Positions 698 to 36,321 of a stretch of DNA of 42,120 nucleotides are shown here, piece after piece. The notes beneath the pieces were generated by a model, which worked only from the letters and a program-made list of their open reading frames with translations, ran no database searches and was not told where the DNA came from. The stretch comes from a virus (Duplodnaviria > Heunggongvirae > Uroviricota > Caudoviricetes). A program made the translations under genes and the position numbers. Numbering within the stretch: position 1 is the stretch's first letter; each line of letters begins with the position of its first letter. The stretch lies in IMG/VR virus record IMGVR_UViG_2534681763_000019; one strand, written 5' to 3'.

Positions 698-1060
698 GGG
701 GCTGATTCTGGATTCGACGGGATTTGCGAAACCCAAGGTGCATGCCGAGGGGCGGTTGGCCTCGTAAAAAGCCGCAAAAAATAGTCGCAAACGACGAAAA
801 CTACGCTTTAGCAGCTTAATAACCTGCTTAGAGCCCTCTCTCCCTAGCCTCCGCTCTTAGGACGGGGATCAAGAGAGGTCAAACCCAAAAGAGATCGCGT
901 GGAAGCCCTGCCTGGGGTTGAAGCGTTAAAACTTAATCAGGCTAGTTTGTTAGTGGCGTGTCCGTCCGCAGCTGGCAAGCGAATGTAAAGACTGACTAAG
1001 CATGTAGTACCGAGGATGTAGGAATTTCGGACGCGGGTTCAACTCCCGCCAGCTCCACCA
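698..1060 (+). ncRNA. ssrA: tmRNA (transfer-messenger RNA)
   Basis: Starts GGGGCTGATTCTGGATTCGACGGG, contains the tag reading frame gcaaacgacgaaaactacgctttagcagcttaa (ANDENYALAA-stop) and ends in the tRNA-like GGTTCAACTCCCGCCAGCTCCACCA; 363 nt. Confidence 0.93.
1016..1060. repeat. attL: 45-bp ssrA 3'-end direct repeat (left prophage boundary)
   Basis: ATGTAGGAATTTCGGACGCGGGTTCAACTCCCGCCAGCTCCACCA is repeated exactly at 36277-36321; the interval between the copies carries a complete P2/186-like prophage with int next to the right copy. Confidence 0.8.
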
Positions 1061-1070
1061 AATAAATCAA

Positions 1071-1103
1071 GGGGTTACGTGAAAGCGTAGCCCCTTTTTC
1101 TTT
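1071..1103 (+). terminator. Rho-independent terminator after ssrA
   Basis: Stem GGGGTTACG / CGTAGCCCC (one G-U pair) with loop TGAAAG, followed by TTTTTCTTT. Confidence 0.5.
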
Positions 1104-1183
1104 GGTAGTGGCGGCAAAATGGCGACAAACTTTTGCGTCTATCTTGCCTGTCGCCATCTTGAAATCATGCAAAGAGGTTTCAC

Positions 1184-1666
1184 ATGGAAGAACTTCACTT
1201 TGTTTACATCAATGCAAATGGTCGTATCGGTGTTCACTCTATACAGGGCATCAGTTATAGCGAAAATCATATACAGGGCATTTGTAAGAACACCGATCGA
1301 ATAAAAACCTTCCGAAAAGACCGCATTCTTAAACAGTACGATTCACCAGAACAAGCCATTCAGGAATGCGCGTCATTCCTCCCCGAAAACTACTCACATC
1401 TCACTAAGCAGTCTGGTCCGAAAAAAAATACATTCGATGTGTGTTTCACCGGATTTAAGAAAGCAGATAAAGAAAGATTGGTTGATAAGGCGAATGAACA
1501 AGGATTAACGGTAAGAACCTCTGTAACCCAAAGCCTTCAGATGCTCTGTTGCGGTTACAATGCAGGCCCATCAAAAGTATCGGCAGCCAGGATGAAAGGC
1601 ACAATCATCATAGATGAGCCTGGCTTTATACATTTTCTTGAAACGGGTGAGATCCCAGATGAATAA
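1184..1666 (+). CDS. Small protein with WYL-like N-terminus and BRCT-like C-terminus (prophage-end moron)
   Basis: 160-aa ORF with RBS aaagagg 8 nt upstream. N-terminal segment ...GRIGVHSIQGISYSENHIQGICKNTDRIKTFRKDRI fits the WYL pattern ending in FRxDRI; C-terminal segment FDVCFTGF...GLTVRTSVTQ...GYNAGPSKVSAARMKGTIIIDEPGF fits the BRCT fold pattern of ligase-type BRCT domains. GC is lower than the phage core. Confidence 0.6.
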   Translation: MEELHFVYINANGRIGVHSIQGISYSENHIQGICKNTDRIKTFRKDRILKQYDSPEQAIQECASFLPENYSHLTKQSGPKKNTFDVCFTGFKKADKERLVDKANEQGLTVRTSVTQSLQMLCCGYNAGPSKVSAARMKGTIIIDEPGFIHFLETGEIPDE

Positions 1667-1695
1667 AAACCTGCCGTAGCAGGTTCTCTTTCTCA
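1667..1695. terminator. Bidirectional hairpin terminator between convergent genes
   Basis: ACCTGC-CGTA-GCAGGT hairpin flanked by A-rich and T-rich runs, between the + gene ending at 1666 and ogr ending at 1693. Confidence 0.45.
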
Positions 1696-1911
1696 AAAAT
1701 TCATATGCCCCTGACCACCTGGCAATGGATGTGGAGGAGCAGTAGCAATCAGTGCGGGTGTCACAATAAACCGGACCACTGTTTCATGGGTAACAAAAGT
1801 GCTCCCGCAGTTAATATTTTGGCACTGGCAGTAACGCTCTTTGGTGCTTTCAGTTACTTGAAAACTGCTCCTTGTGTGTGCCGCATGACCACACTTTGGA
1901 CAATTCATCAT
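1693..1911 (-). CDS. ogr: Ogr/B-family zinc-finger late transcription activator
   Basis: Translation from the internal Met (MMNCPKCGHAAHTR...KERYCQCQNINCGSTFVTHETV...PHPLPGGQ) matches the Cys4 zinc-finger pattern of P2 Ogr / 186 B; it sits between D and the att site as in P2. Confidence 0.8.
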   Translation of the reverse strand: MMNCPKCGHAAHTRSSFQVTESTKERYCQCQNINCGSTFVTHETVVRFIVTPALIATAPPHPLPGGQGHMNF

Positions 1912-1979
1912 ATCCAGATCCCTACCTTTGCTATCAGAATCATTGTAATGATACACAAAATACCAATATTGAGAACCTT

Positions 1980-3080
1980 TTATTCCATTTCAAGATCATC
2001 AATCTTCACTTCGAGTTCAATACTGGTTGTAAAACCGTTATCCGGGCTGACGGTATGTGTCAGAGTCGTAATGGTCCATTCCGCATCATCTATCGGCTGT
2101 TTAAAACCACTGACTTTCACTGGCATTTCCGTGTAGAGATCTGCCCGACCTTCCGCCAGTTGTAGCGAGAATGACGCAACGCCGCGTTGCAGGCGTTCCC
2201 ACTGCATTTTCGCTGCCCGTTCAGCGTTGCTCCGGTTGGCATAAGTGCGATTAAGTACCAGCACGTTTTCATCCGTACCCACCAGGTAATCGCCCTGCTT
2301 CGCTTCCGGCTCTTTCTTCTGATTCTTAGTCCTGCGCTTACGCTTCACCGTTGTGCTTTCTTTCTTCGCGGGTTCGCGGGTATGCAACCAACTGGCAATT
2401 ACGCCCGTATAGGCTCCGCGATCTGCCAGGGTAAAGCGGTGACTGTCGCCGTCCTTACGTGTGATAGTGATCACCGGTAGTGGTTTACCGCTGGCACTTT
2501 TACCCTGTCCCTGCCGGATGAATAACAGATTGCCATTTTTCACCGACGCAATAGCACCGTACTGGCGCGCCAGCCGCATCAAAAAACTGCCGTCACTCTC
2601 ATTAGTCTGGTCTATATGCTCCACGGGTTTATCCGACAAGTCTTTAGCCAGTGCCATCTTCAGTTTGTGCCGCGCGGCTATTTCCTTCACCACTTCCCCG
2701 ACCGTGGTCTTGTGCCACGACTTTTCACGGCGGGTATTCAGCGTTTCCCGAAAATCAGCACTTCGCGCCCGGATAGTCAGGCGGTCCGGTGCGCCAGTGT
2801 GTTCAATCTCGTCCACCGTGAATGCCCCTTTCGGGAAAAGCGGCTGCCCCTTCCAACCCAGCGCCAGCGTAATGACCGCACCACGGCGCGGCAGCACGAT
2901 TTTTCCGTCAGCGTCGTCCAGCTCCAGATCAAGCTGGTCCGCTTCAAAGCCCCGGTTATCCGTCAGCGTAAGCCCCATCAGGCGGTTGTCCAGCACAGTA
3001 GTGATATCCCTGCCCTCAATACTGATGCTGAATGCGGGAGTTTTGTTGCCCTTATTAAGCAGTTCAGAGCTGAAATTCAC
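1980..3080 (-). CDS. D: Tail protein D (late control gene D family)
   Basis: 366-aa ORF at the P2 gpD position (last tail gene before ogr); 4-nt overlap with upstream U. Confidence 0.85.
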   Translation of the reverse strand: MNFSSELLNKGNKTPAFSISIEGRDITTVLDNRLMGLTLTDNRGFEADQLDLELDDADGKIVLPRRGAVITLALGWKGQPLFPKGAFTVDEIEHTGAPDRLTIRARSADFRETLNTRREKSWHKTTVGEVVKEIAARHKLKMALAKDLSDKPVEHIDQTNESDGSFLMRLARQYGAIASVKNGNLLFIRQGQGKSASGKPLPVITITRKDGDSHRFTLADRGAYTGVIASWLHTREPAKKESTTVKRKRRTKNQKKEPEAKQGDYLVGTDENVLVLNRTYANRSNAERAAKMQWERLQRGVASFSLQLAEGRADLYTEMPVKVSGFKQPIDDAEWTITTLTHTVSPDNGFTTSIELEVKIDDLEME

Positions 3081-3562
3081 GACAGCAGCCCTCCCACCGT
3101 TTTACTGATATCGCTTAAAGCAGATGTTGCCGTTTCCTGCAGATTATTCAGTTGCGCACTGAGATCACCGAACATATCGGACAGGGATTCATCCACTCGT
3201 TTGAGCGACAGGGTGAACTCAATCCGGCGCGGCATACCGTCGCGGAAAAACTCCGTTTTAGTCTGATTCAGTCCCTCAATCACATACATGCCGTAAATCG
3301 TGCCGCTGCCTTCAATCAGGGGCCATGCTTTCCCCTGTTCTGCCATCTGCTCCAGTGCCAGCAACGACAGCCTGCCGCCTGTTATCTCCGGCATAAGAAC
3401 GCCAGAAAGCGTCAGCATGTCGTTATCCGGTCCCAGAAACTGCGTTGACGGGCGTCGGTTAACCCGGCTGTTTGCCGCATGTCGCCAGCTGCGTTGATAC
3501 TGCAGTTCCTGATACGGAACGGTGCGCAGCATAAACACGTACAATCCCAGCACCATCATCAT
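3077..3562 (-). CDS. U: Tail protein U
   Basis: 161-aa ORF between tape measure and D, translationally coupled on both sides; P2 gpU position and size. Confidence 0.85.
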   Translation of the reverse strand: MMMVLGLYVFMLRTVPYQELQYQRSWRHAANSRVNRRPSTQFLGPDNDMLTLSGVLMPEITGGRLSLLALEQMAEQGKAWPLIEGSGTIYGMYVIEGLNQTKTEFFRDGMPRRIEFTLSLKRVDESLSDMFGDLSAQLNNLQETATSALSDISKTVGGLLS

Positions 3563-6500
3563 GCGTCGTATCCCCCCTGATCGCTGTAGTTACTCCTGGC
3601 TTTTGCCTTCAGCCTGCGTTCACGTTCATCAAGCTGGCGTGCCACCTCCCGCGCAATATCCTGCGCACTTTGTCCTGGCTGCGTCTGAATGATGATCTGC
3701 GTCGGTGCCTCAATCCGTTGAACGAGCGGCACAGTGGCTGCGCGACTCACAATTGCTTCTCCACCTTTCGCGGGAAGTGCCAAAGGGTGCAACGGTGGAA
3801 GCTCTGCTGGCGCGGCAGCAACGCCCATCATTCCGGCAACAACGGCAGCCAGTGCAGCTGTATTTCTCCGGCTGGTCACATTTGCCGGGCCGTTAACAAT
3901 TTCCGGCCCGTTTTCACCGACGATGCCAAACTGCCCGCGCGGGATATACCCGCCGCTGTCATACAACCCCGCAAAGCCATATCCCCATGACGGAAAACCA
4001 CCCGATGTCATCATCACTTTACCGTCTGCATTCACCGTCGCAGGTTGCTGACGCGTCACGCTTTCCGGCAGTTTTGCCTTTGCGGCTTCTTTACTGACAA
4101 TGCCGAGTTTTTCCAGCAACCAGGATACGCCGGATTTGAGGGAGTCCAGCGGATGCATAACCATATTCAGCCCTTCCGCCAGCGCCTCCCCGAATCGTCG
4201 CCCCATTTCCGCTGCGCTCTGCAGTTCGGCAGAAGTCGACTTAACGGGTGTCAGCAGATCAGTAAACCAGCCCCACAACGCCTGCACTTTATCGCCAATC
4301 CACTGGAACACAGGCTTAAGTGGTTCGAACGCGGCACTGACGGGACCTGCCGCTGCTTTGAATCCCTCCACCACACCACCGAGAAACGCGGTGATGGGTT
4401 GCCAGTATTTCCAGACAACCAGCGCCACACCCGCCAGTGCAGTAACCACAAGACCTATCGGACTGAGCAGAGCACCTAACAGACCAGACACGGCATACAG
4501 GGCAACGCGCAGCATCGCCAGTGGACCAGATGCCAGTACTCGCAGCACCGTGCCTGCGGCGGCCAGTCCACCGCGCAGTACCGCCAGAGGATTCATAAAC
4601 ATCACAGCAACAGCACGTAAACCGGATAATCCAGACCGCAAAAGTGCAACCGGCGCACCTGCTACAGTTTTCAGGACATTTCCCGTCAGTGATGCCGTGC
4701 GGCGCAAAGACGACAACGGCGCAGTAAGTAAACCTGCGGCGTTGCCCGATGAAGCAAGCCCGCGTCGCAGCAGTGCCAGTGGTGCGCCAGCCAGCCAGGA
4801 CAACGCGCTGCTGGTTCGAGTTACTGCTGCCGTAACGGAAGATAACGTTTTGATACCCAACACAGAGAATCCCAGACGGATCACTGCCAGCGGCCCCAGC
4901 ACTGCAGCCAGCGCCACCGCTAAGGTGCCGAGGCCGACGGTAACCGCAGCCACAACAGCCGATGCTTTCATCAGTGTGCCTGTCAGTTCCGGGTTAGCTT
5001 CCACCCAGCGACGCAACGCCCCCGTGACGCTTTTCACCGTGTACAGAATATCCATCAGCGGCTGGCGCAGCGTTTCGCCCAGGCTGCTGAAGGTGTTCTG
5101 CGCTCCGGTTTTGGCCAGCAACCACTGCGCAGAAAGTGAATCCTTGTTAATGTCGGATTCTTTCTGCATGGAGCCGAGCGCATCATTGCCCGCTGTCAGT
5201 TTTAACTGACGCTGCAGTTCCGGCAGGTTGTTTGCCAGTTTCGCCGCGTCATCGCCAAACTCTTTACCAAACAACATAGTCATGGCAGACAGGCGCTTGT
5301 CCTGCGGCAGCGCGTTTACCTTCTCCAGCACGCGCTGGATGGTTCCCATCGCATCCTTCGTCATCTGCTTTTCAATCACTTCAGGATTGAGTTTCAGCAG
5401 ATTCATCCCTTCAAAGAAACTCTTGCTTTGCATGGTGGCAATGGACAATTCACGCACCATCGCGTTTGCTGCACTGGCTGCAACCTCTGGCGCAGCGCCC
5501 AGTGTCAGGAAGGTGGAACCCAGCGCCGCCGCTTTACGATAATCCAGACGGTCAGCCACACCGCCCAGACGTTGCATCACATCAATGATGTCTGCCCCTT
5601 TCGACATGGCGTTATCATCCAGATAGTTCAGCGCATCACCGAGCTGTTCAATATTGCGGGTGGGGATTTTGTAGAGCTGGGCGATTTTCCCCAGACTTTC
5701 TGACAGTTCATCCGCTGGCAGCTCAAAGGCTGTTGCCGCCTTTGCTGCCGTACTGGCGAAGGCCAGCAGGTCACGTTTCTGATCTTCCCAGCTGTCGTCA
5801 GGGTTTGCGACGTTCATGCGCGCACCACCTTCAACCAGTGCAGCGAAGTCCACCGCACCGTTTTCCATCGGCAACTGTTCGCTGGCAGCCTTGATGGCAT
5901 CCTGCATTTCATAAAAACGTGCAGTGCGGTTGCCATTATCGTCACGCAGACCATTGACCTGCTTTGCCACACCTTTCATGGCATCTTCCATGCTGGTATA
6001 GCTTTTTACTGCCGCCATCACTGGCGCACCCATTGCCAGCCCTGCAGCCGTGGTGGTGGCTCCGGCACCTGCAATACGATCACGCACCTCCAGCGAACGG
6101 GCATAACTGGCACGCGCTGCATTCATCCTGCGCTGAGCTTCCCCCAGTCGCTTCAGCCGCGCCTCCTGTTTCGAAAGTTCCTGGTTATAACGTGATGTTT
6201 CACGGGCTAAACGGGCAGTTGCTCCCGCATCGTCTTTCGCAGAAATTCCCGCCCGGTACAGTTCAGCACGCACAAGCGCCGTCTGCTGCTGCAGCTTTTT
6301 CTTGCGTTCTTCCAGGCGCTGAACAGCCAGCCGTTGACGGCCCAGAGCAACAACCTGACGTTGCGAAGGCGGCCCCATCGCTCCCAGTTCCTGACTGAGC
6401 AAATTTGCACGCTGGCGGGCATAGTTCAGACTGTCGCCTAATTTCTGATTTTCTGCCTGCAGCTTTCGGAAGCTGTCCAGACTGCTCCCGGCCTGATCAA

Positions 6501-6636
6501 GCTGCTTTATTGCATCGCGGGATTTTTTGACAGCAGCAGCCAGTTCTCTTGAACTGGCCTGCGCAGATCGAAATGGGCGGGTGAGCTTGTCAACCGCATT
6601 AAGAATGACCTGCAGACGCAGGTTGTTATCACTCAT
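3559..6636 (-). CDS. T: Tail tape measure protein
   Basis: 1025-aa ORF with coiled-coil N-terminal half and Gly/Ala/Leu-rich repetitive hydrophobic segments; located after E/E' as in P2. Confidence 0.88.
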   Translation of the reverse strand: MSDNNLRLQVILNAVDKLTRPFRSAQASSRELAAAVKKSRDAIKQLDQAGSSLDSFRKLQAENQKLGDSLNYARQRANLLSQELGAMGPPSQRQVVALGRQRLAVQRLEERKKKLQQQTALVRAELYRAGISAKDDAGATARLARETSRYNQELSKQEARLKRLGEAQRRMNAARASYARSLEVRDRIAGAGATTTAAGLAMGAPVMAAVKSYTSMEDAMKGVAKQVNGLRDDNGNRTARFYEMQDAIKAASEQLPMENGAVDFAALVEGGARMNVANPDDSWEDQKRDLLAFASTAAKAATAFELPADELSESLGKIAQLYKIPTRNIEQLGDALNYLDDNAMSKGADIIDVMQRLGGVADRLDYRKAAALGSTFLTLGAAPEVAASAANAMVRELSIATMQSKSFFEGMNLLKLNPEVIEKQMTKDAMGTIQRVLEKVNALPQDKRLSAMTMLFGKEFGDDAAKLANNLPELQRQLKLTAGNDALGSMQKESDINKDSLSAQWLLAKTGAQNTFSSLGETLRQPLMDILYTVKSVTGALRRWVEANPELTGTLMKASAVVAAVTVGLGTLAVALAAVLGPLAVIRLGFSVLGIKTLSSVTAAVTRTSSALSWLAGAPLALLRRGLASSGNAAGLLTAPLSSLRRTASLTGNVLKTVAGAPVALLRSGLSGLRAVAVMFMNPLAVLRGGLAAAGTVLRVLASGPLAMLRVALYAVSGLLGALLSPIGLVVTALAGVALVVWKYWQPITAFLGGVVEGFKAAAGPVSAAFEPLKPVFQWIGDKVQALWGWFTDLLTPVKSTSAELQSAAEMGRRFGEALAEGLNMVMHPLDSLKSGVSWLLEKLGIVSKEAAKAKLPESVTRQQPATVNADGKVMMTSGGFPSWGYGFAGLYDSGGYIPRGQFGIVGENGPEIVNGPANVTSRRNTAALAAVVAGMMGVAAAPAELPPLHPLALPAKGGEAIVSRAATVPLVQRIEAPTQIIIQTQPGQSAQDIAREVARQLDERERRLKAKARSNYSDQGGYDA

Positions 6637-7065
6637 CGTTGGCCCCGCTTCTCTGAATCGCTTTATACCGCCATTCCAGCACTTCGGTCAGCGGCATAAC
6701 GTCAGTAACGGATGGCGGCCAGTGAAAAATGGTGGCGATATCTGCCACCAGATCGTCAACCGTCAGGCTGTCGGTAAACCGGCAAGCACCGACTTCTTCA
6801 ACAAAAAAGTGACAACCTCAACCGACATGGCAGTGAGATCTGCCGGGTCCATCTCTGCAATTTCCTGTGCAGTCAGTGCCGGACTGGAGATGCGGGGGAT
6901 CACGGTCATCATCGCGTTTACATCCATATCCATAATGGCCTGCAGGCGTGTACCGCGCAGCGCACCGGACTGCGGTTTACGCAGCACAATTTCGGTGATT
7001 TCTGTTTTACCGCGCTTGATGGGGGTATCCAGTTGAATGGTCTTTTCAGTCTGCTTATCACTCAT
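6629..7065 (-). CDS. E+E' -1 frameshift fusion product (predicted)
   Basis: My manual translation shows the -1 frame after the slippery site staying open until a stop at 6629-6631, overlapping the T start codon, as for P2 E+E'. Confidence 0.6.
6763..7065 (-). CDS. E: Tail chaperone E (zero-frame product)
   Basis: 100-aa ORF directly upstream of the tape measure gene; contains the T6G slippery heptamer near its 3' end. Confidence 0.8.
   Translation of the reverse strand: MSDKQTEKTIQLDTPIKRGKTEITEIVLRKPQSGALRGTRLQAIMDMDVNAMMTVIPRISSPALTAQEIAEMDPADLTAMSVEVVTFLLKKSVLAGLPTA
6802..6808 (-). other. Programmed -1 ribosomal frameshift slippery heptamer TTTTTTG
   Basis: Minus strand reads T_TTT_TTG in the E zero frame, the same slippery heptamer used by P2 E/E' and analogous tail chaperone pairs. 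Confidence 0.6.
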
Positions 7066-7119
7066 TTTTCTGTCCTGTAAATTGGGTTCTGGCGCGGCAT
7101 TCCGCGCCGTTCAGATACA

Positions 7120-7635
7120 TCAGAGGCCGAGGGCGTTGCGGTGCGCTTCCATCAGGTCCACACCGTCCACAATTTCCACCATGTTGATAAGGTCCACTTC
7201 ATAGAGCACCTCACCATTGATAGTCAGCTTCGCGTAACTGTTGGTACTGGTCACTTTGGTGGTGTTGCTTTCGCCCGTCTTCCACTCGCCGGAGTCCACT
7301 TCTTTGTGACGTCCACGCACCACAAGCTCCACGGCCTGTACTTCCCCGGTATCATCACGCTGGATAGAGCCGGTAAAGCGCAACTGGATGCCATCCACCG
7401 TGGCTTTGCCCATCTGTTTAAACAGCAGCAGTTCAGTACCACCAATGGAAAATTCTGTGTCCAGAGCACTGTCATCAAGCCCCAGATCCACATCCACTGC
7501 ACCCGGCATTCCGCCGCCGCGATACTTCTCATATTTGCGGGTGAATTTCGGCAGCGTCAGCGACTCTACGATCCCCTGCCAGTTGTTCCCGTCGTTAAAC
7601 AGGTTCAGATGTTTTAATTTGCGTGGTAAAGCCAT
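7120..7635 (-). CDS. FII: Tail tube protein FII
   Basis: 171-aa ORF immediately downstream of the sheath gene; P2 FII position and size. Confidence 0.85.
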   Translation of the reverse strand: MALPRKLKHLNLFNDGNNWQGIVESLTLPKFTRKYEKYRGGGMPGAVDVDLGLDDSALDTEFSIGGTELLLFKQMGKATVDGIQLRFTGSIQRDDTGEVQAVELVVRGRHKEVDSGEWKTGESNTTKVTSTNSYAKLTINGEVLYEVDLINMVEIVDGVDLMEAHRNALGL

Positions 7636-7644
7636 GTTGTCCCC

Positions 7645-8817
7645 TTACGCGCTGACCTGGCTGGCAAAATTCACCAGGTACTGATCGGTGATGCGCTGGC
7701 GCAGCATCAGATTTTCAAGTGGCGGCACTGGCGTGTAGTCATAGTCGATGGTGAGTTTTCCGGCTTTCAGCGTGTCTTTGTCGTTCACCGACTCATCCAG
7801 CCAGCAATCACCACCAATGAGATAGCCCTGACTGACCAGGCTGCGCATTTTGGCGCGGATACCTTCGATAATGTCGCGGGCCAGCGACGGGTTAAGCGGT
7901 TTATCCACTGCCCACATGTGCGCTTCTGCCATTGTGTCCGTCAGCACCTGCGCCGTGCGGGTGTAGTTTTCGAAGGCAAAGAGCGGGTCATCACTCAGGC
8001 AGCGGGAACCCCAGAAGCGGAAACCGTCTTTACGCACAAGCGTGGTGACGTCGTTCTGGTTCAGCAGACCTGCATCGGTTGCCGGGTCCTGCAGATCCCA
8101 GAACACATCTGCAGAAATTCCGGTGACACCGTTCACGCCCACGTTGGACAGGCTTTTGTGCCACCCGGTCTGCTCATCAATTTTGGCACGCAGACCAAGC
8201 GCACGGGCGGTGGCATATGCCGTTGCTTCGGCATTCAGCACCGTGTCCCAGCCAGTAAAGTCGGGCCAGATCAGCATTCCTTCGCGCTGGCTGAAGTTTT
8301 CACGGTAAGTGATCGCCTCCTGTACCGTCTTGCAGCCATACGCTGACAGGTAAGCAAACCCACGCAGGCTTTGCGCCACGCTCAGCAACTCAGTCGCAAC
8401 GGCTTTGTTATCGTGACCTGGCACGCCGAGAATGCGCGGTTTAACGCCGAGCTGTGACTGGGCAGATAGCAGGGCTTTCATGCCTGTTTTTTTACCTTCA
8501 GCAGTCACAGCGCCGATGATATTGGTCGTGGTTTCGTCTTCCGTTTCACCCTGCGGCACACGCACAACAACGGTCACGGGTTTTGCCTGGTCAGCGATGG
8601 CATCCAGCGAACGGGCCAGAGTACCGGACTCACCCGCTTTACCGCTGGCAGTCAGCACATCAGTGATCAGCACGGGTTTATTAAGAGGAAACATTTTTGC
8701 ATCGGCATCATCGCCCGTGCAGACCATACCCACGATGGCGGTGCTCACCGTGGTAATGGATCGGGTGCCTTCGTTGACTTCAACAACGCGCACCCCGTGG
8801 TGGTAATCCTGAGCCAT
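7645..8817 (-). CDS. FI: Contractile tail sheath protein FI
   Basis: 390-aa ORF upstream of the tube gene; P2 FI position and size. Confidence 0.88.
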
Positions 8818-8949
8818 AAGGCAGTCTCTCCGGTAGTAGAGGGGGTCTGCCTATGTTCTGGTTGATACGAGCAGGATGCACGTTATGTGGTTTGTATGAA
8901 AAATGGCACAACGGCGGATACAGGAATCCCCGCAGACGCGGGGATGTAT

Positions 8950-9417
8950 TCAGACTTCTGGTGATAAAGGCCAGACTATATCCGGGGCATCACTTACATT
9001 AATATTTTCAAGTAACTCAAGATAATCCAGCATCGCATTAAATCTGGTTGTCTCCATTTCGTTCAGCCTGCCAAGCTGTAATTTTGATGGCCATTGTTTT
9101 TCATTAATCAGGTTGTTAGCCTCATTAATGCGCATCTGTTTCATCATTTCTGCCTGTTCCACCTGTTCCTCATGGGTCAATGGTGGACGTTCTTCCCATG
9201 ATGGCTGGTTATCAGTGCCTGCAACCATTTTGTACCCTTCCCGATAACCAAGATAAAACTCCTGATAGACTGCATCACTTACCTCAATACAGTCATCCGG
9301 CCACGCATCGAGAGCATCGTAATAATCAGATTTCAGTTCACTGTTATAAAATGCATTTCTTGATGGACTGTAAAAATAACTCATCAGACCCCCTCCGCAA
9401 TAAACCCAATATTCCAT
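8950..9417 (-). CDS. G: Tail fiber assembly chaperone
   Basis: 155-aa ORF immediately downstream of, and overlapping, the tail fiber gene; lower GC than the core, typical of mosaic fiber modules. Confidence 0.7.
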   Translation of the reverse strand: MEYWVYCGGGLMSYFYSPSRNAFYNSELKSDYYDALDAWPDDCIEVSDAVYQEFYLGYREGYKMVAGTDNQPSWEERPPLTHEEQVEQAEMMKQMRINEANNLINEKQWPSKLQLGRLNEMETTRFNAMLDYLELLENINVSDAPDIVWPLSPEV

Positions 9418-13604: not shown

Positions 13605-13623
13605 GTTGTAACTAAGGAGGCGA

Positions 13624-24866: not shown

Positions 24867-24885
24867 CTCGTATCCCCGCCACGCC
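24867..24885. other. Putative cos (cohesive end) core
   Basis: Plus strand CTCGTATCCCCGCCACGCC is the reverse complement of GGCGTGGCGGGGATACGAG, sharing the first 13 nt with the 186/P2 cohesive end as I recall it (GGCG[T/A]GGCGGGGAAAGCA.). Orientation relative to Q matches the P2 left end. Confidence 0.4.
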
Positions 24886-27723: not shown

Positions 27724-27733
27724 AAAAGTCACC

Positions 27734-27922
27734 TCAGCTGATGACATCCATTGAGCGGTTGTATTCGTGGGTTCTGATTTTTGCCATGAGTTCATCAGTC
27801 AATTCAGAAACCCACTGCAGAGCCAGCCCCTTCTCTTCATCACTACACTCACTAGCCGCTACAAGCTTAAGAAAAAAATCAATGCGCTGGAGCTTCAAAG
27901 ACTCCAAAAAATAGTCCTGCAT
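27734..27922 (-). CDS. Small hypothetical protein, first gene of LexA-box operon
   Basis: 62-aa ORF from MQDYFLESL... with a strong RBS (AGGAGGAAAG) 4 nt upstream; the longer 96-aa ORF-track version would read through the LexA box. Confidence 0.5.
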   Translation of the reverse strand: MQDYFLESLKLQRIDFFLKLVAASECSDEEKGLALQWVSELTDELMAKIRTHEYNRSMDVIS

Positions 27923-27963
27923 CTTTCCTCCTATAACACCACGAGCAATACTGTATACATGAC

Positions 27964-27983
27964 CACTGTTTATATTTACAGTA
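27964..27983. promoter_or_regulatory. LexA (SOS) box CACTGTTTATATTTACAGTA
   Basis: CTGT-N8-ACAG with AT-rich spacer, 17/20 to consensus TACTGTATATATATACAGTA; overlapped by -10-like TATAAT/TATACT elements; a half-site (CTGTATACATGA) lies just upstream. Confidence 0.55.
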
Positions 27984-28075: not shown

Positions 28076-30514
28076 TTAATACAGGTTCCGCCACTTATCA
28101 TCTTCCTGTAAACGCTGATTCCGATAGAAGATACGCAGGCCAGCCCCTGACGGAATACTGCCTCCGCGAAGGAGTAAATCGACCTCTTTCTCGCTGCCAT
28201 CAAATCCTCTGGACTTCAGTTCATAGACGAGCTGCTGTCGCTGATGGTCTGTAATTCGCTGTTTGTAGTCTTTGCGCCGTTTCGGTTTCACCTGGCGTAA
28301 CCTTGCAGCCAGTTCCCGACGCTCTTTTTTGCTCATACTGTGCAGATAATCGTGCAACTCCTTGTCATCCTGGCGGGTAATGTCAGTTCTGGTGTCCCCA
28401 TCAGCTGATTTATCTTTCTCCTGTTGGTTCAAATTTTCAGCAAGGGGACAGTTATTGCCACGAGTCCGAGTCCGAGTCCGAGTCCGAGTCCAAGGGGCGC
28501 AAGCGCCCTTGTCGGCTGCCGCCTCCTGAACGTCAACGGCCTTACGAACCATTTTCCACTTCACTGCATGAGTGCAGATCTTGCCCTCTGCAATGGGTGA
28601 CCAGATGCCATAAATACGAATACCGTGATCGCCATAGGCGGTCGGCTCTTCGTTGATTTCATAAGCAGTTCTGATGAGGTGATATTTGCGGGGAACCAGT
28701 ACGCCGCCCTGCTTCATGATGTAGGTGGCAAAACAACCAGCATCAGCAGCAGCCAGGATTGCATCAAGGCGCGGGTTATCCAGTACCGGCGCACCTGCTT
28801 TTTTGTCCCCCTGCTGCCTTGCCGCCTGACCAGCCAGCAATCGCAGTTCACGGTAAGCCTGACGCCCCGGAATGCCAAAGAAGCGGAATTGCTGAACACG
28901 ATGCAGAGACGCCCAAGCATTAACGTATTCAGCGTTATCACGCAGGGATTTACCCGTTTCCTTGCTGATCTCGCCAGCCAGACCACGCCCGTCAATGTTC
29001 TTACTGATGTATTTCGCGATGTAGCTTGTTGGCGTACCTTTGCGCGGGTTTATCAGCTCGGACTTAAAGCGTGGTCCCGTGTTATTACCCAGCTCCTCGC
29101 GGTCTTCACGAATGGCAAACTTACGCAACAAAGCAGTAATGGCGCGGCGATCTTTTTTGCGCATAAAACACAACAGGTGCCAGTGAACTGTACCGTCGTG
29201 ATGCGGCTCAGCCACCCGCACGCCATACCAGCGCAACCCGGCTTTGTGCATCGCCTTACGAAATGCAGCAAACATACCGACCAGATAATCACTGCTTTGT
29301 CTTACCGTCGCATTTGTCCAGGTTGGGTTGGGCCTGCCGTTATTTAGCGTGGAATGGAAACGTGACGGACAGGTGATGGTGTAGAAAACGGCGCAGTCAC
29401 CGCGCATTTCCGCGATAAGCTCCAGACCTTTAACACAGGCCATCATCTCATTGCGGCGATGCGCAGGGTTGCTGCTGCTGGCGTTTACCACATCCTCCAT
29501 GTCCAGCGTGTCGCCGTCTTCGTTCACCAGTTCATGAGAACGGAAAAACTCCAGCGACTTACGGCGCTGCTCACGTTTATGCATCACGGCTTCATAGCTG
29601 ACATAAGGAGATGCTTTTTTGCTAACCAGGCAGACAGCGCGCAACTGCTCTTCCCGCCATTCGCAACGCATCTTCCATAATTTCCGATACCACCAGTCGG
29701 CGCACAACATACGCGCCAGCGAACCCGGAATGAGTTCATAGGGCACGGGTTTACGGCGGTTTCTTTTCCGACGGAGTTGCTCAAACGCAGGCGGGATAAC
29801 ATCCAGACGCAGGGTTTCCGCTGCCACCTTTTCCCACGTCTTGCGGATTTCTTCTGGCTTAACGTCATCGGTGGCATACAAATCACCACAAGCGGCATCA
29901 AGGCACATGCTCATATGCGCAGCAACAAGGGTAGACAGACGCTTCACCTGATCCTGACTCATTTCAGGCAGGATCAGCAGGCCGTCCAGCCCTTCATGGC
30001 TTGCCATAAAGCGAAAAGAAGTGGATAGCTGACAGTCGCGTACATGCTCCAGTCGTTCCAGACATGGCTTAATCGTCTCACGCAAATAGCGGGAATAAGC
30101 CTTTGGCCTGCCCAGGCTGCTGAAGTATTCAATACGTTGCATCAGCGGCTTGCTGATATGGGAAGGCTGGGCATTGACGTCCGCCAGAATGACCATATCT
30201 GGATTAAAACGCTGCTGCTCATGCGCCAGCTTTGCCCGGCTAATGAGTTTATCCTGCTCCATTTCGCGTTGGACAGGATCACGGGATTCATTAAAGAAAT
30301 AACGCTCCCAGACCTGATCACTCAGTGCCTCGCGGCGCAGTTGTTCCAGCTCGTTATCGACAGCGTACAGAGTGATCAGGTTTGAAAGCGCAGAAACCGG
30401 CGCAACTTCCGCCGGGTCCAGATAAGGGTTAATGGCCTTTTTCGGGCTGTTCCATGAGAATGCTGCGGCGACCTCGTTAAAGCCGCTGCAGTTGTTCATA
30501 TCAGCATGGCTCAT
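28076..30514 (-). CDS. A: Replication initiation protein A (rolling-circle nickase)
   Basis: 812-aa ORF with HUH-like motif (TVHWHLLCF); largest early gene, coupled to the upstream dam gene by 4-nt overlap. Confidence 0.85.
28461..28491. repeat. Hexanucleotide tandem repeat (CGAGTC)x5 inside gene A
   Basis: cgagtccgagtccgagtccgagtccgagtcc; encodes (TR)5 in the A protein and contains five tandem GAGTC pentamers. Confidence 0.9.
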
Positions 30515-31368
30515 GCACGCACTCCGTACACGGCAGAACTATCCACTCCACGCGAAGGATCAAATCCCACCCAGCAGCGCGGCCCGGAAACAGCGATGAT
30601 TTCTGTTGCAGATTTACTCTCACCAGCTGCTACGCCGATGCTGCGTTTTGCCTTGATGTAGTGGTGAGTAAAATTGCGATACAGCGAACGGATCAGGGAT
30701 GTGTCACTGTTAGAAACAATGACCGGATGTCCTTCTGATGACCGATGTTCAAGAACGGATGCCAGGTGATACTGGTCATCTTCAGTGAAACCATCAGTGT
30801 GATAGCCGGAAAACGTACCGTCATACGGCGGATCGCAATACACCACATCCCCCACCTGCAGCATCGCCAGCGTTTCATCAAAGCTCGCGCAGATAAACGT
30901 TGCCCGCTTGGCTTTCTCTGCAAATGCGCGAATTTCTTTTTCAGGGAAATACGGATTTTTATAATTACCGTAGGGAATATTGAAATGCCCGCTCTTGTTA
31001 TAGCGACATAAACCACGGTAACCGTGACGATTGAGATACAGGAAATATACCGCTTTCATGAAATCAGTAATTTCAGTTGAGTAATTAAACTCCTGCCTTA
31101 TGTTGTAATAAGCCACCTCCCTGTTTGCGATCTCAAATAAAACTCTGGCGCGAGATATAAACGATTCACAATCAGCGGCAACCTTTTTATAGAGGTTGAT
31201 TAAATCAGGATTAATATCCGCAACCAGATAACTGGGATAATCCGTCTCCATCATCACAGCACAGGAACCCGCGAAAGGTTCAACCAGTCGCGGGCCAGCA
31301 GGAAGATGTTTTTTCAGTTCTGACATTATGGCAGTTTTATTTCCCGCCCATTTCAGGATGGTGCTCAT
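30511..31368 (-). CDS. dam: DNA adenine methyltransferase (Dam-like, orphan)
   Basis: Translation from [11 protein letters not shown]... has the Dam-family N-terminus (WAGNK...EPFAGS) and catalytic DPPY; start overlaps the upstream stop as ATGA; no cognate restriction gene adjacent. Confidence 0.8.
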
Positions 31369-31592
31369 ACAGCACCTCCGTTGTAATGTTTGCCTTTCAG
31401 CTCTGCGATTTCCTGACAGGTAATGCAAAGCTGCACACCCGGAATGGCACGGCGGCGTGCTGGCGGAATTGGCGCTTCACACTCAATGCAAAGCACGCGG
31501 GACACGCCCGGCGTTTTGGCACGGGCAGCATGGATATGACGCTGGCGTTCTTCTTCAACGCGCTGCTGTACGAGATCCATTGCATCAGCCAT
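31365..31592 (-). CDS. TraR/DksA-family C4 zinc-finger protein
   Basis: 75-aa ORF with CIECEAPIP...CITCQ (C-x2-C ... C-x2-C). Confidence 0.65.
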   Translation of the reverse strand: MADAMDLVQQRVEEERQRHIHAARAKTPGVSRVLCIECEAPIPPARRRAIPGVQLCITCQEIAELKGKHYNGGAV

Positions 31593-31831
31593 TAGTGGAT
31601 CTCCTGCGCTTCGTTCTGGATTGCTTCAGCAGTCACACGAAGCAGTTCTGCCGCTTCGACGTGGTTTAGCTGGCGGGATGTGATATGACACGCCAGGCTA
31701 TCAAGGCGAGCTGCCATTGCTTCAGCCCTTGCCCGGCGTTCTTCCAGACGAGCCTCTGTCAGTAAAATATTAAGCCCTGCGTCATCCGGTCCGGTTTTGG
31801 TCGTGAGGGTTTCAATATTACGCATAATCAA
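31592..31831 (-). CDS. Hypothetical early protein
   Basis: 79-aa ORF in the early operon, helical/Ala-rich. Confidence 0.5.
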   Translation of the reverse strand: MIMRNIETLTTKTGPDDAGLNILLTEARLEERRARAEAMAARLDSLACHITSRQLNHVEAAELLRVTAEAIQNEAQEIH

Positions 31832-31892
31832 TTCTCCTGAATTTAGATAAAGGGATACCCGGCGGGTTTACGCCATTAATTTCATTAGTTGG

Positions 31893-32234
31893 TTAATTCG
31901 GCATGGTTAGCCGTCTGGGAAATAAGCTCACCACTGCACGAAAATGATTCATTGCTTTAATCAACTCCCGCTTTTCGTCAGTGGTCAGCTCATTAATGCT
32001 GATGCTATGACGTTCAGCTGGAATTTTTGCCATAAAGAATATAGCAGCCAGTGCCCGTTTATTTTGTTCGTTATTGATATCCCGTGGATCACGCATATCT
32101 TTAATAAACCGCTCAAGCTCTGACTCAATATTCAGGCCAAATACTTTCGCCCTTAACTCCGCAATGTGATTAAGTCCATTCAGGCGTTCACCGGGGCTTA
32201 ATGGAACAGTCGCCGCAGCGCTTTCAATAGCCAT
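31893..32234 (-). CDS. Hypothetical early protein
   Basis: 113-aa ORF in the early operon. Confidence 0.5.
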   Translation of the reverse strand: MAIESAAATVPLSPGERLNGLNHIAELRAKVFGLNIESELERFIKDMRDPRDINNEQNKRALAAIFFMAKIPAERHSISINELTTDEKRELIKAMNHFRAVVSLFPRRLTMPN

Positions 32235-32316
32235 TTATGCATCCCCACAACACATCTACTAAAAAATTTTTGATATGATCCATTACCAACATATTGATAG
32301 CTAGAAGGAATCATCA

Positions 32317-32565
32317 ATGTTGAACCCGGTTGAAAGAGAGCGTATAGAGCAACTTGAAAACGAGATCTCCAGTCTTCGCGATGAGGTTGCTGTTCAACGA
32401 ATTCTTGTTTCAGGTCTGATCCACTCCTTATTTCGAACTGACTCAGCAAATCAATCAGCATTTTTTGAGCTCCTCCGCGAAGAATTAAACAAACTTCCTT
32501 TAGGTTCGGTTAAACAACAAGAATTCACTCATCTGATACAGACACTGATAGATCGTTACCGATAA
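32317..32565 (+). CDS. Hypothetical coiled-coil protein, opposite strand within early region
   Basis: 82-aa ORF with RBS (aaggaa) 7 nt upstream and a plausible promoter (TTGATA...TATTGAT); looks more protein-like than the antisense ORF 32198-32461. Confidence 0.4.
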   Translation: MLNPVERERIEQLENEISSLRDEVAVQRILVSGLIHSLFRTDSANQSAFFELLREELNKLPLGSVKQQEFTHLIQTLIDRYR

Positions 32566-32780
32566 ATATTTCGCCGATAACGTTCAAGAGGTGATGTCTT
32601 TATACGCATCACTTCTTGTACTTTTTCACCACGTATAAAGGTTCCATCCTTTAGCGTGAAAAAGTAGCTACCATCGCCCGACAACGACGGATAGCAACAG
32701 AGCAAATCATCTTCAGGTACTGAATAATTCTCCCCTCTGTAACGAAAGTGATAAACCACTTCATTTTCTGCCGCATACAT
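32556..32780 (-). CDS. Hypothetical early protein
   Basis: 74-aa ORF downstream of cII; an out-of-frame ORF (32651-32977) overlaps its 5' end so boundaries are uncertain. Confidence 0.4.
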   Translation of the reverse strand: MYAAENEVVYHFRYRGENYSVPEDDLLCCYPSLSGDGSYFFTLKDGTFIRGEKVQEVMRIKTSPLERYRRNIYR

Positions 32781-32954
32781 TTGGACTTTCTCCGTTTCCT
32801 CGTGATCAATTCAGACAGCAATTCATCTTGTGAACGGCACGGATGCCAGCGTTTACCATCCTCACCCATGATCCAGCCGTGACCGTAGTGCATTGCCGGG
32901 CTTTGTTTTACCAGCAGCGATGCAAATGATGGTTCTTTCGTCAGCATAAGCACC

Positions 32955-33464
32955 TCACAGCAAACCGAATGAAGCACCGAGGCCAGTCACGGTATCAACT
33001 GCACTCGCCATCGCAGGATTAGCCTGTAAACGGGCCTGCAATGAAACAGCCGCCAGCGCCATCAGTCGTGTTACAGAGTTAATGCTGCTGATAGCATCAC
33101 GACGACCGGCACAGGTTTTTACATCGCCAGATACCGCACCTGCAGCAACACGCCCGATCTCTGCGGTTGCACTCATGACGTAATGTGGCAGTTTCTCTTT
33201 TGCCACCTCATTAATCGGTACACATGGCAGACAATGAATCTGTGCCAGAAAACCATCTACCAGCGTTGAATCTTCAGTCAGATCGGTAAGCAGCCAGATT
33301 TCTGGTGCGGTTAATAAATGAGGCTGAGCTGGGTTCAGCTTGTTCCGCAGAATCTGCACATTCATGCCTGCACGTTCTGCCAGTTGCACCAGGTTGTGAC
33401 GCAGTGCAAAAGCCCTACAGGCTTCATCGAAATGCGGATGTTTGGAAATCTTGTAATCAAACAT
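32955..33464 (-). CDS. cII: CII-like lysogeny establishment regulator (186 family)
   Basis: 169-aa ORF, same length as 186 CII, with strong resemblance to my recollection of it ([20 protein letters not shown]...[16 protein letters not shown]...); follows apl as in 186. Confidence 0.7.
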
Positions 33465-33496
33465 GGTGCCCCCTTAGAAAGTTCCCATAATTGAAC

Positions 33497-33739
33497 TTAC
33501 TTACCAACAATGACGCGGAAGTTGGAATGACCGAGGGATTCACGGACCTGATCAGTTTTGTACATCAGATAACGAAGGCTTACGCGGCCTTTATTTTTTT
33601 CTTTCTTGACCATGTACTTAGCAAGTTGACCATGGTGAATTTTTTGGTAAACAGAGCCACGGGAAATGCCCTCCCACTCTGCGAACTCTGCAGGCGTAGC
33701 CATCTCTTTTGGTACACGAATTGAAATATCAGTACTCAT
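33497..33739 (-). CDS. apl: Apl/Cox-like excisionase-repressor (HTH)
   Basis: 80-aa ORF, first gene of the rightward early operon divergent from cI; HTH-like segment ATPAEFAEWEGISRGSVYQKI. Confidence 0.65.
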   Translation of the reverse strand: MSTDISIRVPKEMATPAEFAEWEGISRGSVYQKIHHGQLAKYMVKKEKNKGRVSLRYLMYKTDQVRESLGHSNFRVIVGK

Positions 33740-33860: not shown

Positions 33861-34493
33861 ATGTTAAACATCAGAATGGGTTCCGATACGGGAGGTAAGG
33901 CAGCTATTGAGAGGCTGCTTGAGGCTTATGGATTCACAACTAAGCAGGCATTAAGCGAGCACCTGAATGTCTCAAAAAGTACTATGGCAAACAGAGTGTT
34001 ACGTGACAGTTTTCCTGCTGACTGGATAATTCAGTGTGCACTAGAAACCGGTGTTTCGTTACTTTGGTTAGCCACAGGACAGGGAAGCATGAAAGAAGGA
34101 TACGAGCCTGAGAAAAGATCTCATAACGAGAACAAACAAGCAATTAAACCGTTATCCAAACTCATAACTCCATCTATTCCTAAAGGAACCTTGGAAAATG
34201 GACAACTCAGTATTGATGAAGAGATTTTCCTAGACCACAGCATATTACCTGCAGATTATGAAGAATCGATGTTCTTAGAAACCCCTACTGATTGTTATCT
34301 CATCGATAAATCAGTTAAACAAGTCAGCAATGGATTCTGGCTTATCAATATTGATGGAATGATTATTATTGCAAAAATCATGCGGATTCCCGGCAATAAG
34401 ATTGTAGTAAATCAAGATGAAGCATCTTTCGAGTGCTCTGCTGATGATGTGGAAGTTATTGGGCGTGCAGTCAAAGTAATAAAGAGTATCTAA
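33861..34493 (+). CDS. cI: CI-like immunity repressor
   Basis: 210-aa ORF divergent from apl and directly upstream of int; N-terminal HTH-like segment (LSEHLNVSKSTMANRV). Confidence 0.7.
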   Translation: MLNIRMGSDTGGKAAIERLLEAYGFTTKQALSEHLNVSKSTMANRVLRDSFPADWIIQCALETGVSLLWLATGQGSMKEGYEPEKRSHNENKQAIKPLSKLITPSIPKGTLENGQLSIDEEIFLDHSILPADYEESMFLETPTDCYLIDKSVKQVSNGFWLINIDGMIIIAKIMRIPGNKIVVNQDEASFECSADDVEVIGRAVKVIKSI

Positions 34494-34495
34494 AC

Positions 34496-35512
34496 ATGAC
34501 TGTCAGAAAACAGCCAAACGGTAAATGGTTGTGCGAGTGCTATCCCAATGGACGCAATGGCAAGCGCGTGCGTAAGCAATTTGCTACGAAAGGCGAAGCC
34601 ATTGCTTTTGAAAGCTTCACAATGGAAGAAGTGAACAAAAAACCATGGCTGGGGGAAAAGGAAGATCGGCGACACCTATCAGAATTAATTGAGCAGTGGT
34701 ATTCCCTGTATGGTCAAACACTCGCAGACCCCAAGCGCCTCATGGCGAAACTTAGAATTATCTGTAATGGTCTAGGCGATCCCATCGCTTCAGAACTGAC
34801 AGCCGGTGACTTTACGAAATACCGCGAAGCACGGTTAAAAGGTGAAGTACGAAATGAAGATGGCACGTTTATGTCGCCCGTTAAGCCCCGCACGGTAAAC
34901 CTTGAACAGCGCAATCTATCATCTGTTTTTGGTACACTGAAAAAGTTGGGCCACTGGTCAGCCTCCAACCCGCTTGCTGGGCTGCCAACATTTAAAATTG
35001 CTGAGAGTGAATTGGCGTTCCTGACCCCGGAAGAAATTAAACGTCTGCTGGATGCCTGCGCCGATTCTCAAAGCTCCAGCCTGCTTTTGATTGCAAAAAT
35101 ATGCCTGGCCACCGGCGCACGCTGGAGCGAAGCCGAAAACCTGCAGAGTCATCAGGTATCAAAATACCGTATCACTTATACCAAGACCAAAGGCAAGAAA
35201 AACCGAACTGTGCCTATTTCTAAGGATTTATATGAAGAACTGCCTAAGAATAGGGGGAAGTTATTCACCCCATGCAGAAAAGCCTTTGAGCGTGCAGTAA
35301 AGCGGGCTGGTATCGATCTGCCAGAGGGTCAATGTACTCACGTTCTGCGTCATACATTCGCTAGCCATTTTATGATGAATGGTGGAAACATATTGGTTTT
35401 GCGGGATATCCTAGGACATTCAGATATAAAAATGACCATGGTCTATGCACACTTCGCCCCAGACCATTTAGAAGATGCCGTAACTAAAAATCCTTTATTT
35501 AATTTGAGGTAA
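34496..35512 (+). CDS. int: Tyrosine integrase (P2/186 family)
   Basis: 338-aa ORF with tyrosine-recombinase C-terminal motifs (ATGARWSE...HVLRHTFASHF...LGHSDIKMTMVYAH); adjacent to attR. Confidence 0.88.
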   Translation: MTVRKQPNGKWLCECYPNGRNGKRVRKQFATKGEAIAFESFTMEEVNKKPWLGEKEDRRHLSELIEQWYSLYGQTLADPKRLMAKLRIICNGLGDPIASELTAGDFTKYREARLKGEVRNEDGTFMSPVKPRTVNLEQRNLSSVFGTLKKLGHWSASNPLAGLPTFKIAESELAFLTPEEIKRLLDACADSQSSSLLLIAKICLATGARWSEAENLQSHQVSKYRITYTKTKGKKNRTVPISKDLYEELPKNRGKLFTPCRKAFERAVKRAGIDLPEGQCTHVLRHTFASHFMMNGGNILVLRDILGHSDIKMTMVYAHFAPDHLEDAVTKNPLFNLR

Positions 35513-35522
35513 GTAGTAATTT

Positions 35523-36191
35523 ATGAATAGCGAACTAGAGTTACTTATAAAAATATTATTCCCTTCCCTATCTGCCATTATATCCTTATTAGGGCTTAAA
35601 ACAGGGTGGACTTATAAAAAAGACAAACTATTCACATCACGTAAAAACATTAGCGAATTTTCATATCAGATGTATAAAAGCAGTGAAGATCCGACCTTCA
35701 AAAAACTGGCGGAAGATTACGGCATTGCTGCATTAACCAAAGATAACACATTGACAAAAAAACAAAGATTAATATTACTCAACACAACAAACCCCGTTAG
35801 CGATATAGATAATTATTCCAAATGTCAAAGTCTAATTTCCATTACCACCCATAAAGAAATATTCGCATGGAATAAAAAAAGATATAAATACAGCATATAT
35901 AGAAAATTAATAAAAATCATAACAACTCTAATTTACTTCATGAGCAGTCTCATCGTAGCACTTCCTTTCAGTTATTCTGTTGTAGTAAGTGCTAAGATGA
36001 TGGAGAAGATAAACCATCTAACTACTTGGCAATACTTTGGTTTAAGCAGCTATTTTGTGGTATCGGGAGTAGCAATATGCTTTATCTGCCTAGATAAGCT
36101 CTCCAAGATTAAGATCGCCGAGAGATTAATCGTTTCGAATAGGCGTTTAGGCGACAAATGCAGTGGCGGCACTTTGGCGGCAGAAAGTTAA
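35523..36191 (+). CDS. AT-rich membrane protein (moron between int and attR)
   Basis: 222-aa ORF, very low GC, hydrophobic helices (LFPSLSAIISLLGL, IITTLIYFMSSLIVALPF, YFGLSSYFVVSGVAICFICL). Confidence 0.6.
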   Translation: MNSELELLIKILFPSLSAIISLLGLKTGWTYKKDKLFTSRKNISEFSYQMYKSSEDPTFKKLAEDYGIAALTKDNTLTKKQRLILLNTTNPVSDIDNYSKCQSLISITTHKEIFAWNKKRYKYSIYRKLIKIITTLIYFMSSLIVALPFSYSVVVSAKMMEKINHLTTWQYFGLSSYFVVSGVAICFICLDKLSKIKIAERLIVSNRRLGDKCSGGTLAAES

Positions 36192-36276
36192 AAACCCATA
36201 AAACGGACAGACACCGTATAAATCTAACCAACTGAAAATCAAAGCAAATCATTGTTTTTACAGACATTGAAATGCT

Positions 36277-36321
36277 ATGTAGGAATTTCGGACGCGGGTT
36301 CAACTCCCGCCAGCTCCACCA
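36277..36321. repeat. attR: second copy of the 45-bp ssrA 3'-end repeat
   Basis: Exact copy of 1016-1060; followed by a terminator and a P4-like integrase gene. Confidence 0.8.

Follow-up and report, generated by a model that had tools for sequence, protein, structure and literature searches.

The 3' end of ssrA, the gene for transfer-messenger RNA (tmRNA), is a known target of mobile elements. Fels-2 and SopEPhi are reported to integrate into ssrA (PMC3448106, PMC10107115), and the attachment (att) core of the SopEPhi/Fels-2 type is perfectly restored on excision (PMC10107115). Excision of the CP4-57 element of Escherichia coli K-12, by contrast, deletes T357 of ssrA (PMC10107115). Elements also stack at tRNA and tmRNA genes (tDNAs): 125 tandem arrays are recorded among 3919 islands, with the tmRNA gene as the most enriched target (PMC4383910). 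The subject here is a 42,120-nucleotide stretch of DNA filed as virus record IMGVR_UViG_2534681763_000019 (the whole stretch is called the window). It very probably holds a Fels-2-like prophage integrated at the 3' end of ssrA and joined to the remnant of an older, CP4-57-like island at the same site.

The DNA in the window comes from the E. coli chromosome. Over the segments tested it is 100% identical to five complete genomes, four of them enterotoxigenic E. coli (ETEC) or human isolates, and it differs by 3 single-nucleotide polymorphisms from positions 2964528-3006647 of strain ETEC-2265 (NZ_CP023346). Both ARAGORN and Rfam detect a single full tmRNA gene in it, with the tag ANDENYALAA. 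The last 45 bp of this gene, ATGTAGGAATTTCGGACGCGGGTTCAACTCCCGCCAGCTCCACCA, occur as two exact copies in the same orientation, 35.26 kb apart, and the identity breaks off sharply, with G versus T just 5' of the block and A versus C just 3' of it. This is the sole long direct repeat that spans the region, and a calculation made for this analysis puts the chance expectation of an exact 45-mer pair in 42 kb at ~1e-18. The window and the 8 kb that follow it in the matching genome contain no third or degenerate copy. The attachment region comprises the following features, in which Int denotes the prophage integrase and Cartapus is a phage genome record.

698-1060, plus strand: ssrA (tmRNA), intact (ARAGORN; Rfam RF00023, 295.8 bits)
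1016-1060, plus strand: predicted attL core, the 45-bp identity block (repeat comparison, empty-site alignment)
1069-1105, plus strand: phage-borne intrinsic terminator of the regenerated ssrA, in the P' arm (stem and T-run; same sequence 3' of the core in Cartapus)
1107-1116, plus strand: 186-type Int arm-site motif AGTGGCGGCA, P' arm
36162-36171, plus strand: 186-type Int arm-site motif AGTGGCGGCA, P arm
36277-36321, plus strand: predicted attR core, the original last 45 bp of ssrA, now displaced, and also the left junction of the island (repeat comparison, empty-site alignment)
36356-36390, plus strand: island-borne terminator-like hairpin (homologous to the one supplied by CP4-57 in K-12)

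The two repeats are the predicted attL and attR cores of the prophage because an empty site exists in E. coli 94-3024, attP is contiguous in Cartapus and the integrase is related to Fels-2 Int. In 94-3024, ssrA is directly joined to the sequence found 3' of the right copy in the window, and a three-way alignment yields attB (BOB') as the attL left flank, the core and the attR right flank. The reconstructed attP, made by joining 36021-36321 to 1061-1360, matches Cartapus in one piece at 90.7% identity, across the P arm, the core and the P' arm. In Cartapus itself, the identity to ssrA is anchored at the 3' end and spans exactly 45 bp, after which comes the same hairpin as in the P' arm of the window, and the Fels-2 record has attP annotated at the equivalent place. 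The arm motif that flanks the core on each side fits the published 186-type consensus, tgccGCCActt (PMC3448106). The integrase shares 95% identity with Cartapus Int, 92% with Fels-2 Int and 55% with 186 Int; in the alignments with the last two, the catalytic R...HxxR...H...Y motifs can be seen. The two marks of the Fels-2/SopEPhi type, an ssrA 3' end in attP and an Int close to that of Fels-2, are thus both found here. For annotation, the exact prophage ends are 1061-36321, equivalently 1016-36276, and the last 45 bp of the ssrA gene at 698-1060 are now phage-supplied, or not distinguishable from the phage copy.

Each copy of the repeat is followed by a hairpin and a T-run. The hairpin at 1069-1096 is strong, with a 12-bp stem (-19.8 kcal/mol, z -4.6), and that at 36356-36385 is weaker, with an imperfect stem (z -1.3 for the 79-nt stretch). 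The island-borne hairpin is the ssrA terminator in strains that lack the prophage.

The initial annotation had described the duplicated ssrA 3' end, a complete P2/186-family prophage between the copies and a terminator after each; all three descriptions hold. It had also proposed a comparison with prophage-free strains and of the 45-bp core with P2-family attP sequences, for which 94-3024, with ssrA abutting the island, and Cartapus, with the same core contiguous with both arms, provide the answer. Its placement of int beside the right copy needs correction, since int (34496-35512) does lie at that end but a cargo gene for a 222-amino-acid (aa) protein (35523-36191) stands between the two.

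These features very probably arose as follows. A temperate Fels-2-like phage would have entered the 3' end of ssrA by site-specific recombination through its tyrosine recombinase, using an attP in which a 45-bp copy of the ssrA 3' end lies between arm-type Int sites. Because attP carries that copy, recombination with attB would rebuild an intact tmRNA gene at attL, now with a phage-borne terminator. The original 45 bp would have been displaced to attR, still joined to the resident CP4-57-like element. That element, with its P4-family integrase, would have used ssrA earlier, and IS3 would later have cut it down to int and three genes. The prophage may still be inducible through a LexA box and a Tum/DinI-like module, and excision by Int and a Cox/Apl-like protein would restore a perfect ssrA; because the cores are identical (45/45), it should leave an intact tmRNA gene.

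The likely point of strand exchange is suggested by phage 186, whose annotated attP contains a tDNA fragment of 45 nt that runs from the anticodon loop to CCA with its 3' end facing ogr/B. In 186 the heptamer annotated as the crossover site coincides with the anticodon loop, where the block has its int-proximal 5' end. Given the same orientation and 45-nt length in the window, strand exchange most likely takes place in the heptamer ATGTAGG (1016-1022 and 36277-36283), at the 5' end of the 45-bp block. Since the target is tmRNA instead of tRNA-Ile, this position is inferred only.

Between the copies, the sequence identifies a probable P2/186-family prophage, more precisely a Fels-2-like member of the family Peduoviridae, in which a P2-type virion module is combined with a 186-type lysogeny module. 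Some 80% of the late region matches Peduoviridae records at 95-97% identity; for the early region, identity to RE2010, Cartapus and related phages is 91-95%. Compared block by block with Cartapus, all backbone segments show 93-98% identity, and the gaps are limited to the tail fibre, one lysis gene (lysA) and the cargo slots. Among catalogued phages, Elveevirus Cartapus and Wadgaonvirus 500465-1 are its nearest relatives. The record "Escherichia phage 500465-1" (NC_049342.1) was rejected as an excised replicon and not used as a free attP; it is another integrated prophage, because it holds host recN, bamE, ratA, smpB and ssrA flanks. The backbone features are listed here with the host gene on the left.

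1-483, plus strand: smpB, host gene (RefSeq annotation of the matching genome)
1184-1666, plus strand: 160-aa BRCT-like protein, phrog_2561 (beside attP in relatives)
1693-1911, minus strand: ogr/B late-gene activator, zinc finger (Pfam Ogr_Delta, 9e-21)
1980-19899, minus strand: P2-type late genes D, U, T, E/E', FII, FI, tail fibre and assembly, I, J, W, V, S, R, lysis cassette, X, L, M, N, O (RefSeq annotation; 93-98% nucleotide identity to Cartapus over most)
13627-14064, opposite strand: orphan gene inside the late region
20042-22836, plus strand: terminase ATPase (P) and portal (Q) (RefSeq annotation)
24861-25011, no strand: cohesive-end (cos) region (93.4% match to the joined ends of Cartapus)
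27490-27983, minus strand: putative SOS module with LexA-box-like site, 62-aa open reading frame (ORF) and DinI/Tum-like gene (Pfam DinI; compare the p95/tum annotation of 186)
28076-33739, minus strand: early genes for gpA replication endonuclease, dam, DksA-like gene, DUF2732, DUF5347, fil pseudogene, cII, Cox/Apl-like excisionase (RefSeq annotation, Pfam, PHROG)
32792-32947: fil pseudogene
33497-33739, minus strand: Cox/Apl-like excisionase (phrog_575, Cox-like excisionase)
33861-34493, plus strand: CI repressor, 186 type, two-domain (Pfam Phage_CI_repr, Phage_CI_C)
34496-35512, plus strand: prophage tyrosine integrase (Pfam Int_N, Phage_integrase)

The P2-type virion and lysis set is present at full length (Q, P, O, N, M, L, X, holin, lysozyme, LysB/C, R, S, V, W, J, I, H, G, FI, FII, E/E', T, U and D). 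Rolling-circle replication is represented by the GPA endonuclease (Pfam Phage_GPA, 1.5e-127). The 186-type lysogeny module consists of CI, CII, an Apl/Cox-like excisionase and an SOS-controlled Tum/DinI-like gene (Pfam Phage_CI_repr, Phage_CI_C, Phage_CP76, DinI). The LexA-box-like palindrome CACTGTTTATATTTACAGTA at 27964-27983 is the single such site in the window, where 0 are expected by chance. It lies upstream of the 62-aa ORF and the DinI-like gene (27490-27922, minus strand) and resembles the SOS-controlled p95/tum module of phage 186. With backbone and cos present, and fil as the only annotated pseudogene, the prophage appears complete as far as annotation can tell.

The cos region is located with the portal gene on one side and the early region on the other, and positions 1-59 of Cartapus are annotated as a putative cos site. 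The literal 19-mer of P2 cos is absent from the window with up to 3 mismatches. A looser P2 cos core motif matched only the O-P intergenic region and was judged a chance match.

To the right of attR lies an island remnant of ~5.5 kb, cut by insertion sequence IS3 and reduced to int and three genes.

36487-37716, plus strand: P4-family integrase of the island remnant (Pfam Arm-DNA-bind_3, Phage_int_M, Phage_integrase)
within 37755-41711, plus strand: island cargo, 138-aa ORF
38243-39991, minus strand: Response_reg_2 protein (PF19192), 582 aa, response-regulator-like (Pfam)
39993-41711, minus strand: HEF_HK and HATPase_c protein (PF19191), 572 aa, histidine-kinase-like (Pfam)
41863-42120, minus strand: IS3 transposase gene, which runs off the window and truncates the island (RefSeq annotation)

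The island integrase passes NCBIfam NF007246 (440.3 bits against a cutoff of 434) and is 48% identical to CP4-57 IntA of K-12 and 34% to P4 Int. Together with its domain architecture, these values sustain the view of the initial annotation that a P4/CP4-57-like integrase gene directly follows the right copy. The HEF_HK/Response_reg_2 pair belongs to a two-component-like module for which there is a bioinformatic description only, linked to restriction-modification and paraMORC contexts (PMC8011034). The same block is present beside the ssrA prophage CP-1639, where GenBank AJ304858 labels it a "remnant integrative element", and it also flanks the ssrA phage phi467 (LN997803).

The far end of the island appears to be gone. 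No further ssrA fragment that would mark it was found up to gabP, or 8 kb past the window, with 2-3 errors (substitutions, indels) allowed. The IS3 copy abuts a 5'-deleted ygaQ (extended locus 41863-44179); a search for IS3 terminal inverted repeats returned none, and the boundary of the insertion sequence is therefore given by the transposase gene alone. Strain 65COLEC carries a sister variant whose left junction, comprising the core and the start of int, is 92% identical in nucleotides and has the same integrase annotation, followed by different cargo, IS3 and then intact ileY and ygaQ. From the comparison with 65COLEC and K-12 it follows that the window strain also lost the 5' part of ygaQ as well as ileY, the tRNA gene that phage 186 uses as its attB. 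This suggests an IS3-associated deletion that took the right end of the island with it. The claim that two different elements used one tmRNA att site in succession is thus upheld in substance and narrowed in form. The second element is an IS3-truncated relic that lacks a distal att and P4 satellite genes, so the locus is strictly a prophage and a relic, not two mobile elements.

Some points weigh against the reading of a Fels-2-like prophage joined to an older remnant. Excision and induction of the prophage are predictions from its sequence. The fil gene is a pseudogene, though phage 186 does not need fil. The sequence cannot show where in the identical 45 bp the crossover takes place, and the hairpin after the right copy is weak. 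Structure alone cannot prove the order of arrival, because the 45-bp fragment still holds the shorter P4-type target.

The first two of these points, with the segments unlike Cartapus (tail fibre, lysA and cargo slots), would suit a prophage that is a locked-in cryptic remnant, its repeats merely a historical scar. Such decay is improbable, however, given that the P2 essential late genes, cos, gpA, ogr, cI, cII, the Cox/Apl-like gene and int are all full length, that the att cores are identical at 45 of 45 positions and that the segments shared with Cartapus retain 93-98% identity.

Arrival in the reverse order, with the Fels-2-like phage first and the island later inserted into the displaced 45-bp fragment at attR, would be mechanically plausible: that fragment keeps the whole P4-type target of ~23 bp, from the T-loop to CCA, and the right-end repeat of CP4-57 in K-12 covers the T-loop-to-CCA part of ssrA only. 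Population data nevertheless make this order very unlikely. In a set of 5426 complete E. coli genomes, 560 carry the island (80% coverage or more), 165 have this attL junction and 51 the identical attR-island (tandem) junction; the 45-mer has 269 extra copies across the same set. The island is therefore ~10 times more frequent than the tandem state (560 versus 51 genomes), and in prophage-free strains it is joined to full ssrA via an identical junction. It is also decayed, being IS3-truncated with no distal att found, and it occurs beside prophages unrelated to the Fels-2-like one, which points to an old resident and several later phage arrivals. That the island arrived before the prophage is thus well supported as an inference from population data.

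That the right-hand element is a P4-like satellite using the adjacent P2-family prophage as helper, an idea invited by a P4-family integrase adjoining such a prophage, can be dismissed: alpha primase/helicase, sid, psu, delta, epsilon, AlpA/Vis and cos are all absent from 36322-41862, the island genes are only int, the 138-aa ORF and the histidine-kinase-like (HK-like)/response-regulator-like (RR-like) pair, there is no distal att, and the same remnant is found without any P2-like neighbour.

The remaining genes of the prophage are cargo, located on both sides of cos and between int and attP.

22874-23545, minus strand: PtuB of a predicted Septu type I pair, 223 aa (PADLOC 1.8e-82; Pfam HNH)
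23538-24776, minus strand: PtuA of the same pair, 412-aa ATPase (PADLOC 7.1e-122; Pfam AAA_21)
25229-25882, plus strand: orphan gene, 217 aa (Rx4H motif RNCIVH, weak RTasHEPN match; low GC)
26135-27001, minus strand: orphan gene, 288 aa (weak Abi_C match at the C-terminus; low GC)
35523-36191, plus strand: 222-aa predicted multi-pass membrane protein, phrog_21256, function not assigned (slot between int and attP)

The ptuA and ptuB genes are adjacent, overlap by 8 bp and give full-length PADLOC matches, as in a Septu type I system, and would form a predicted defence system. They lie between the portal gene and cos in a segment with ~33% GC. The 217-aa and 288-aa genes are convergent and lie between cos and the DinI-like gene. 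Neither protein has a PHROG, NCBIfam or strong PADLOC match, and the gene pair recurs in other E. coli prophages at ~99% identity; both are candidate single-gene abortive-infection genes. The full four-gene block is present in 5 of the 5426 genomes. The int-attP slot holds a 401-aa RES-domain protein in Cartapus, orf69 in 186 and nothing in Fels-2, and these differing contents make it appear a variable cargo position. PADLOC gives no match for the 288-aa protein, the 222-aa protein or the HK-like/RR-like pair of the island.

Some side observations concern the edges of these blocks. The cos region sits in the middle of the cargo block, not directly beside the portal gene, which is why accessory genes flank it on either side. 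The last ~55 bp of the portal gene (22780-22836) are AT-rich, and identity to Cartapus ends at 22784, which places the cargo-replacement breakpoint within this gene, at its 3' end. The BRCT-like gene is conserved on the ogr side of attP in Cartapus and 500465-1; its product is variously annotated as "DNA ligase" or "exonuclease" and has a weak PDC-S48 match.

The cargo genes that lack characterization are the one mildly novel part of the locus. It is conceivable, if rather doubtful, that the 217-aa, 288-aa and 222-aa genes and the Response_reg_2/HEF_HK pair are new genes of anti-phage or inter-element conflict, that the int-attP position is a further variable cargo slot of Fels-2-like phages, and that selection for the HK-like/RR-like pair keeps the decayed island at ssrA in ~10% of E. 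coli genomes.

As an arrangement this is known, recurrent and ordinary, since published work already covers ssrA-integrating Fels-2/SopEPhi phages as well as tandem arrays at tmRNA genes, and it does not change current understanding. Its value is that of a clean, fully resolved example of tDNA-targeting elements stacking at a tmRNA gene. Here ssrA stays functional because the incoming phage brings its own gene 3' end and its own terminator, and the displaced 45 bp mark the border with the older relic. The prophage is thereby set apart from an unrelated island, with which prophage-finding tools could merge it. Excision should spare the tmRNA, unlike that of CP4-57 in K-12 (T357 loss).

Set against known systems, the locus resembles each in part. 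The tandem arrays catalogued by Islander run from an intact tDNA through a first island and a displaced fragment to a second island, each with its own integrase (PMC4383910), and the window follows this order. For the prophage, the window contains the intact tDNA, a displaced 3' fragment in the same orientation and a tyrosine integrase between them. The second element has an integrase but no ssrA fragment of its own at its distal end, and it is therefore not a strict Islander array member.

The island is most like CP4-57, which also has a P4-family int immediately 3' of ssrA, with integrases 48% identical and a homologous terminator. CP4-57 differs in being 22 kb long, with alpA and a degenerate right repeat (psaA); the island has ~5.5 kb, neither alpA nor a right repeat, and other cargo. 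Closer matches are the blocks in AJ304858 (CP-1639) and LN997803 (phi467), which share the order intA, hypothetical gene, 582-aa protein and HK-like protein. Their integrases are 91.6-99.8% identical to that of the window island, and both blocks lie beside an ssrA-integrated prophage. Those prophages differ from the present one in not being P2-like (erf, ssb, XerC-type integrase), and phi467 leaves a shorter ssrA fragment.

Coliphage 186 shares with the prophage an Int of 55% identity, the arm motif, a 45-nt tDNA fragment and a common order of ogr/B, terminator, arm sites, tDNA 3' fragment, arm sites, small ORF, int and cI. It differs in its target, the tRNA-Ile gene ileY, as opposed to the tmRNA gene used here. 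Fels-2 and SopEPhi differ from the window prophage in host, which here is E. coli rather than Salmonella, in the identity block, which is 45 bp here against the annotated 24+23 bp of Fels-2, and in cargo, since the window prophage has Septu, two orphan genes and a membrane protein. These Salmonella Peduoviridae share with it the same target, the 3' end of ssrA, and the lysogeny module of Fels-2 (CI, CII, Cox/Apl-like, Dam and gpA) has the same organization as that of the window prophage.

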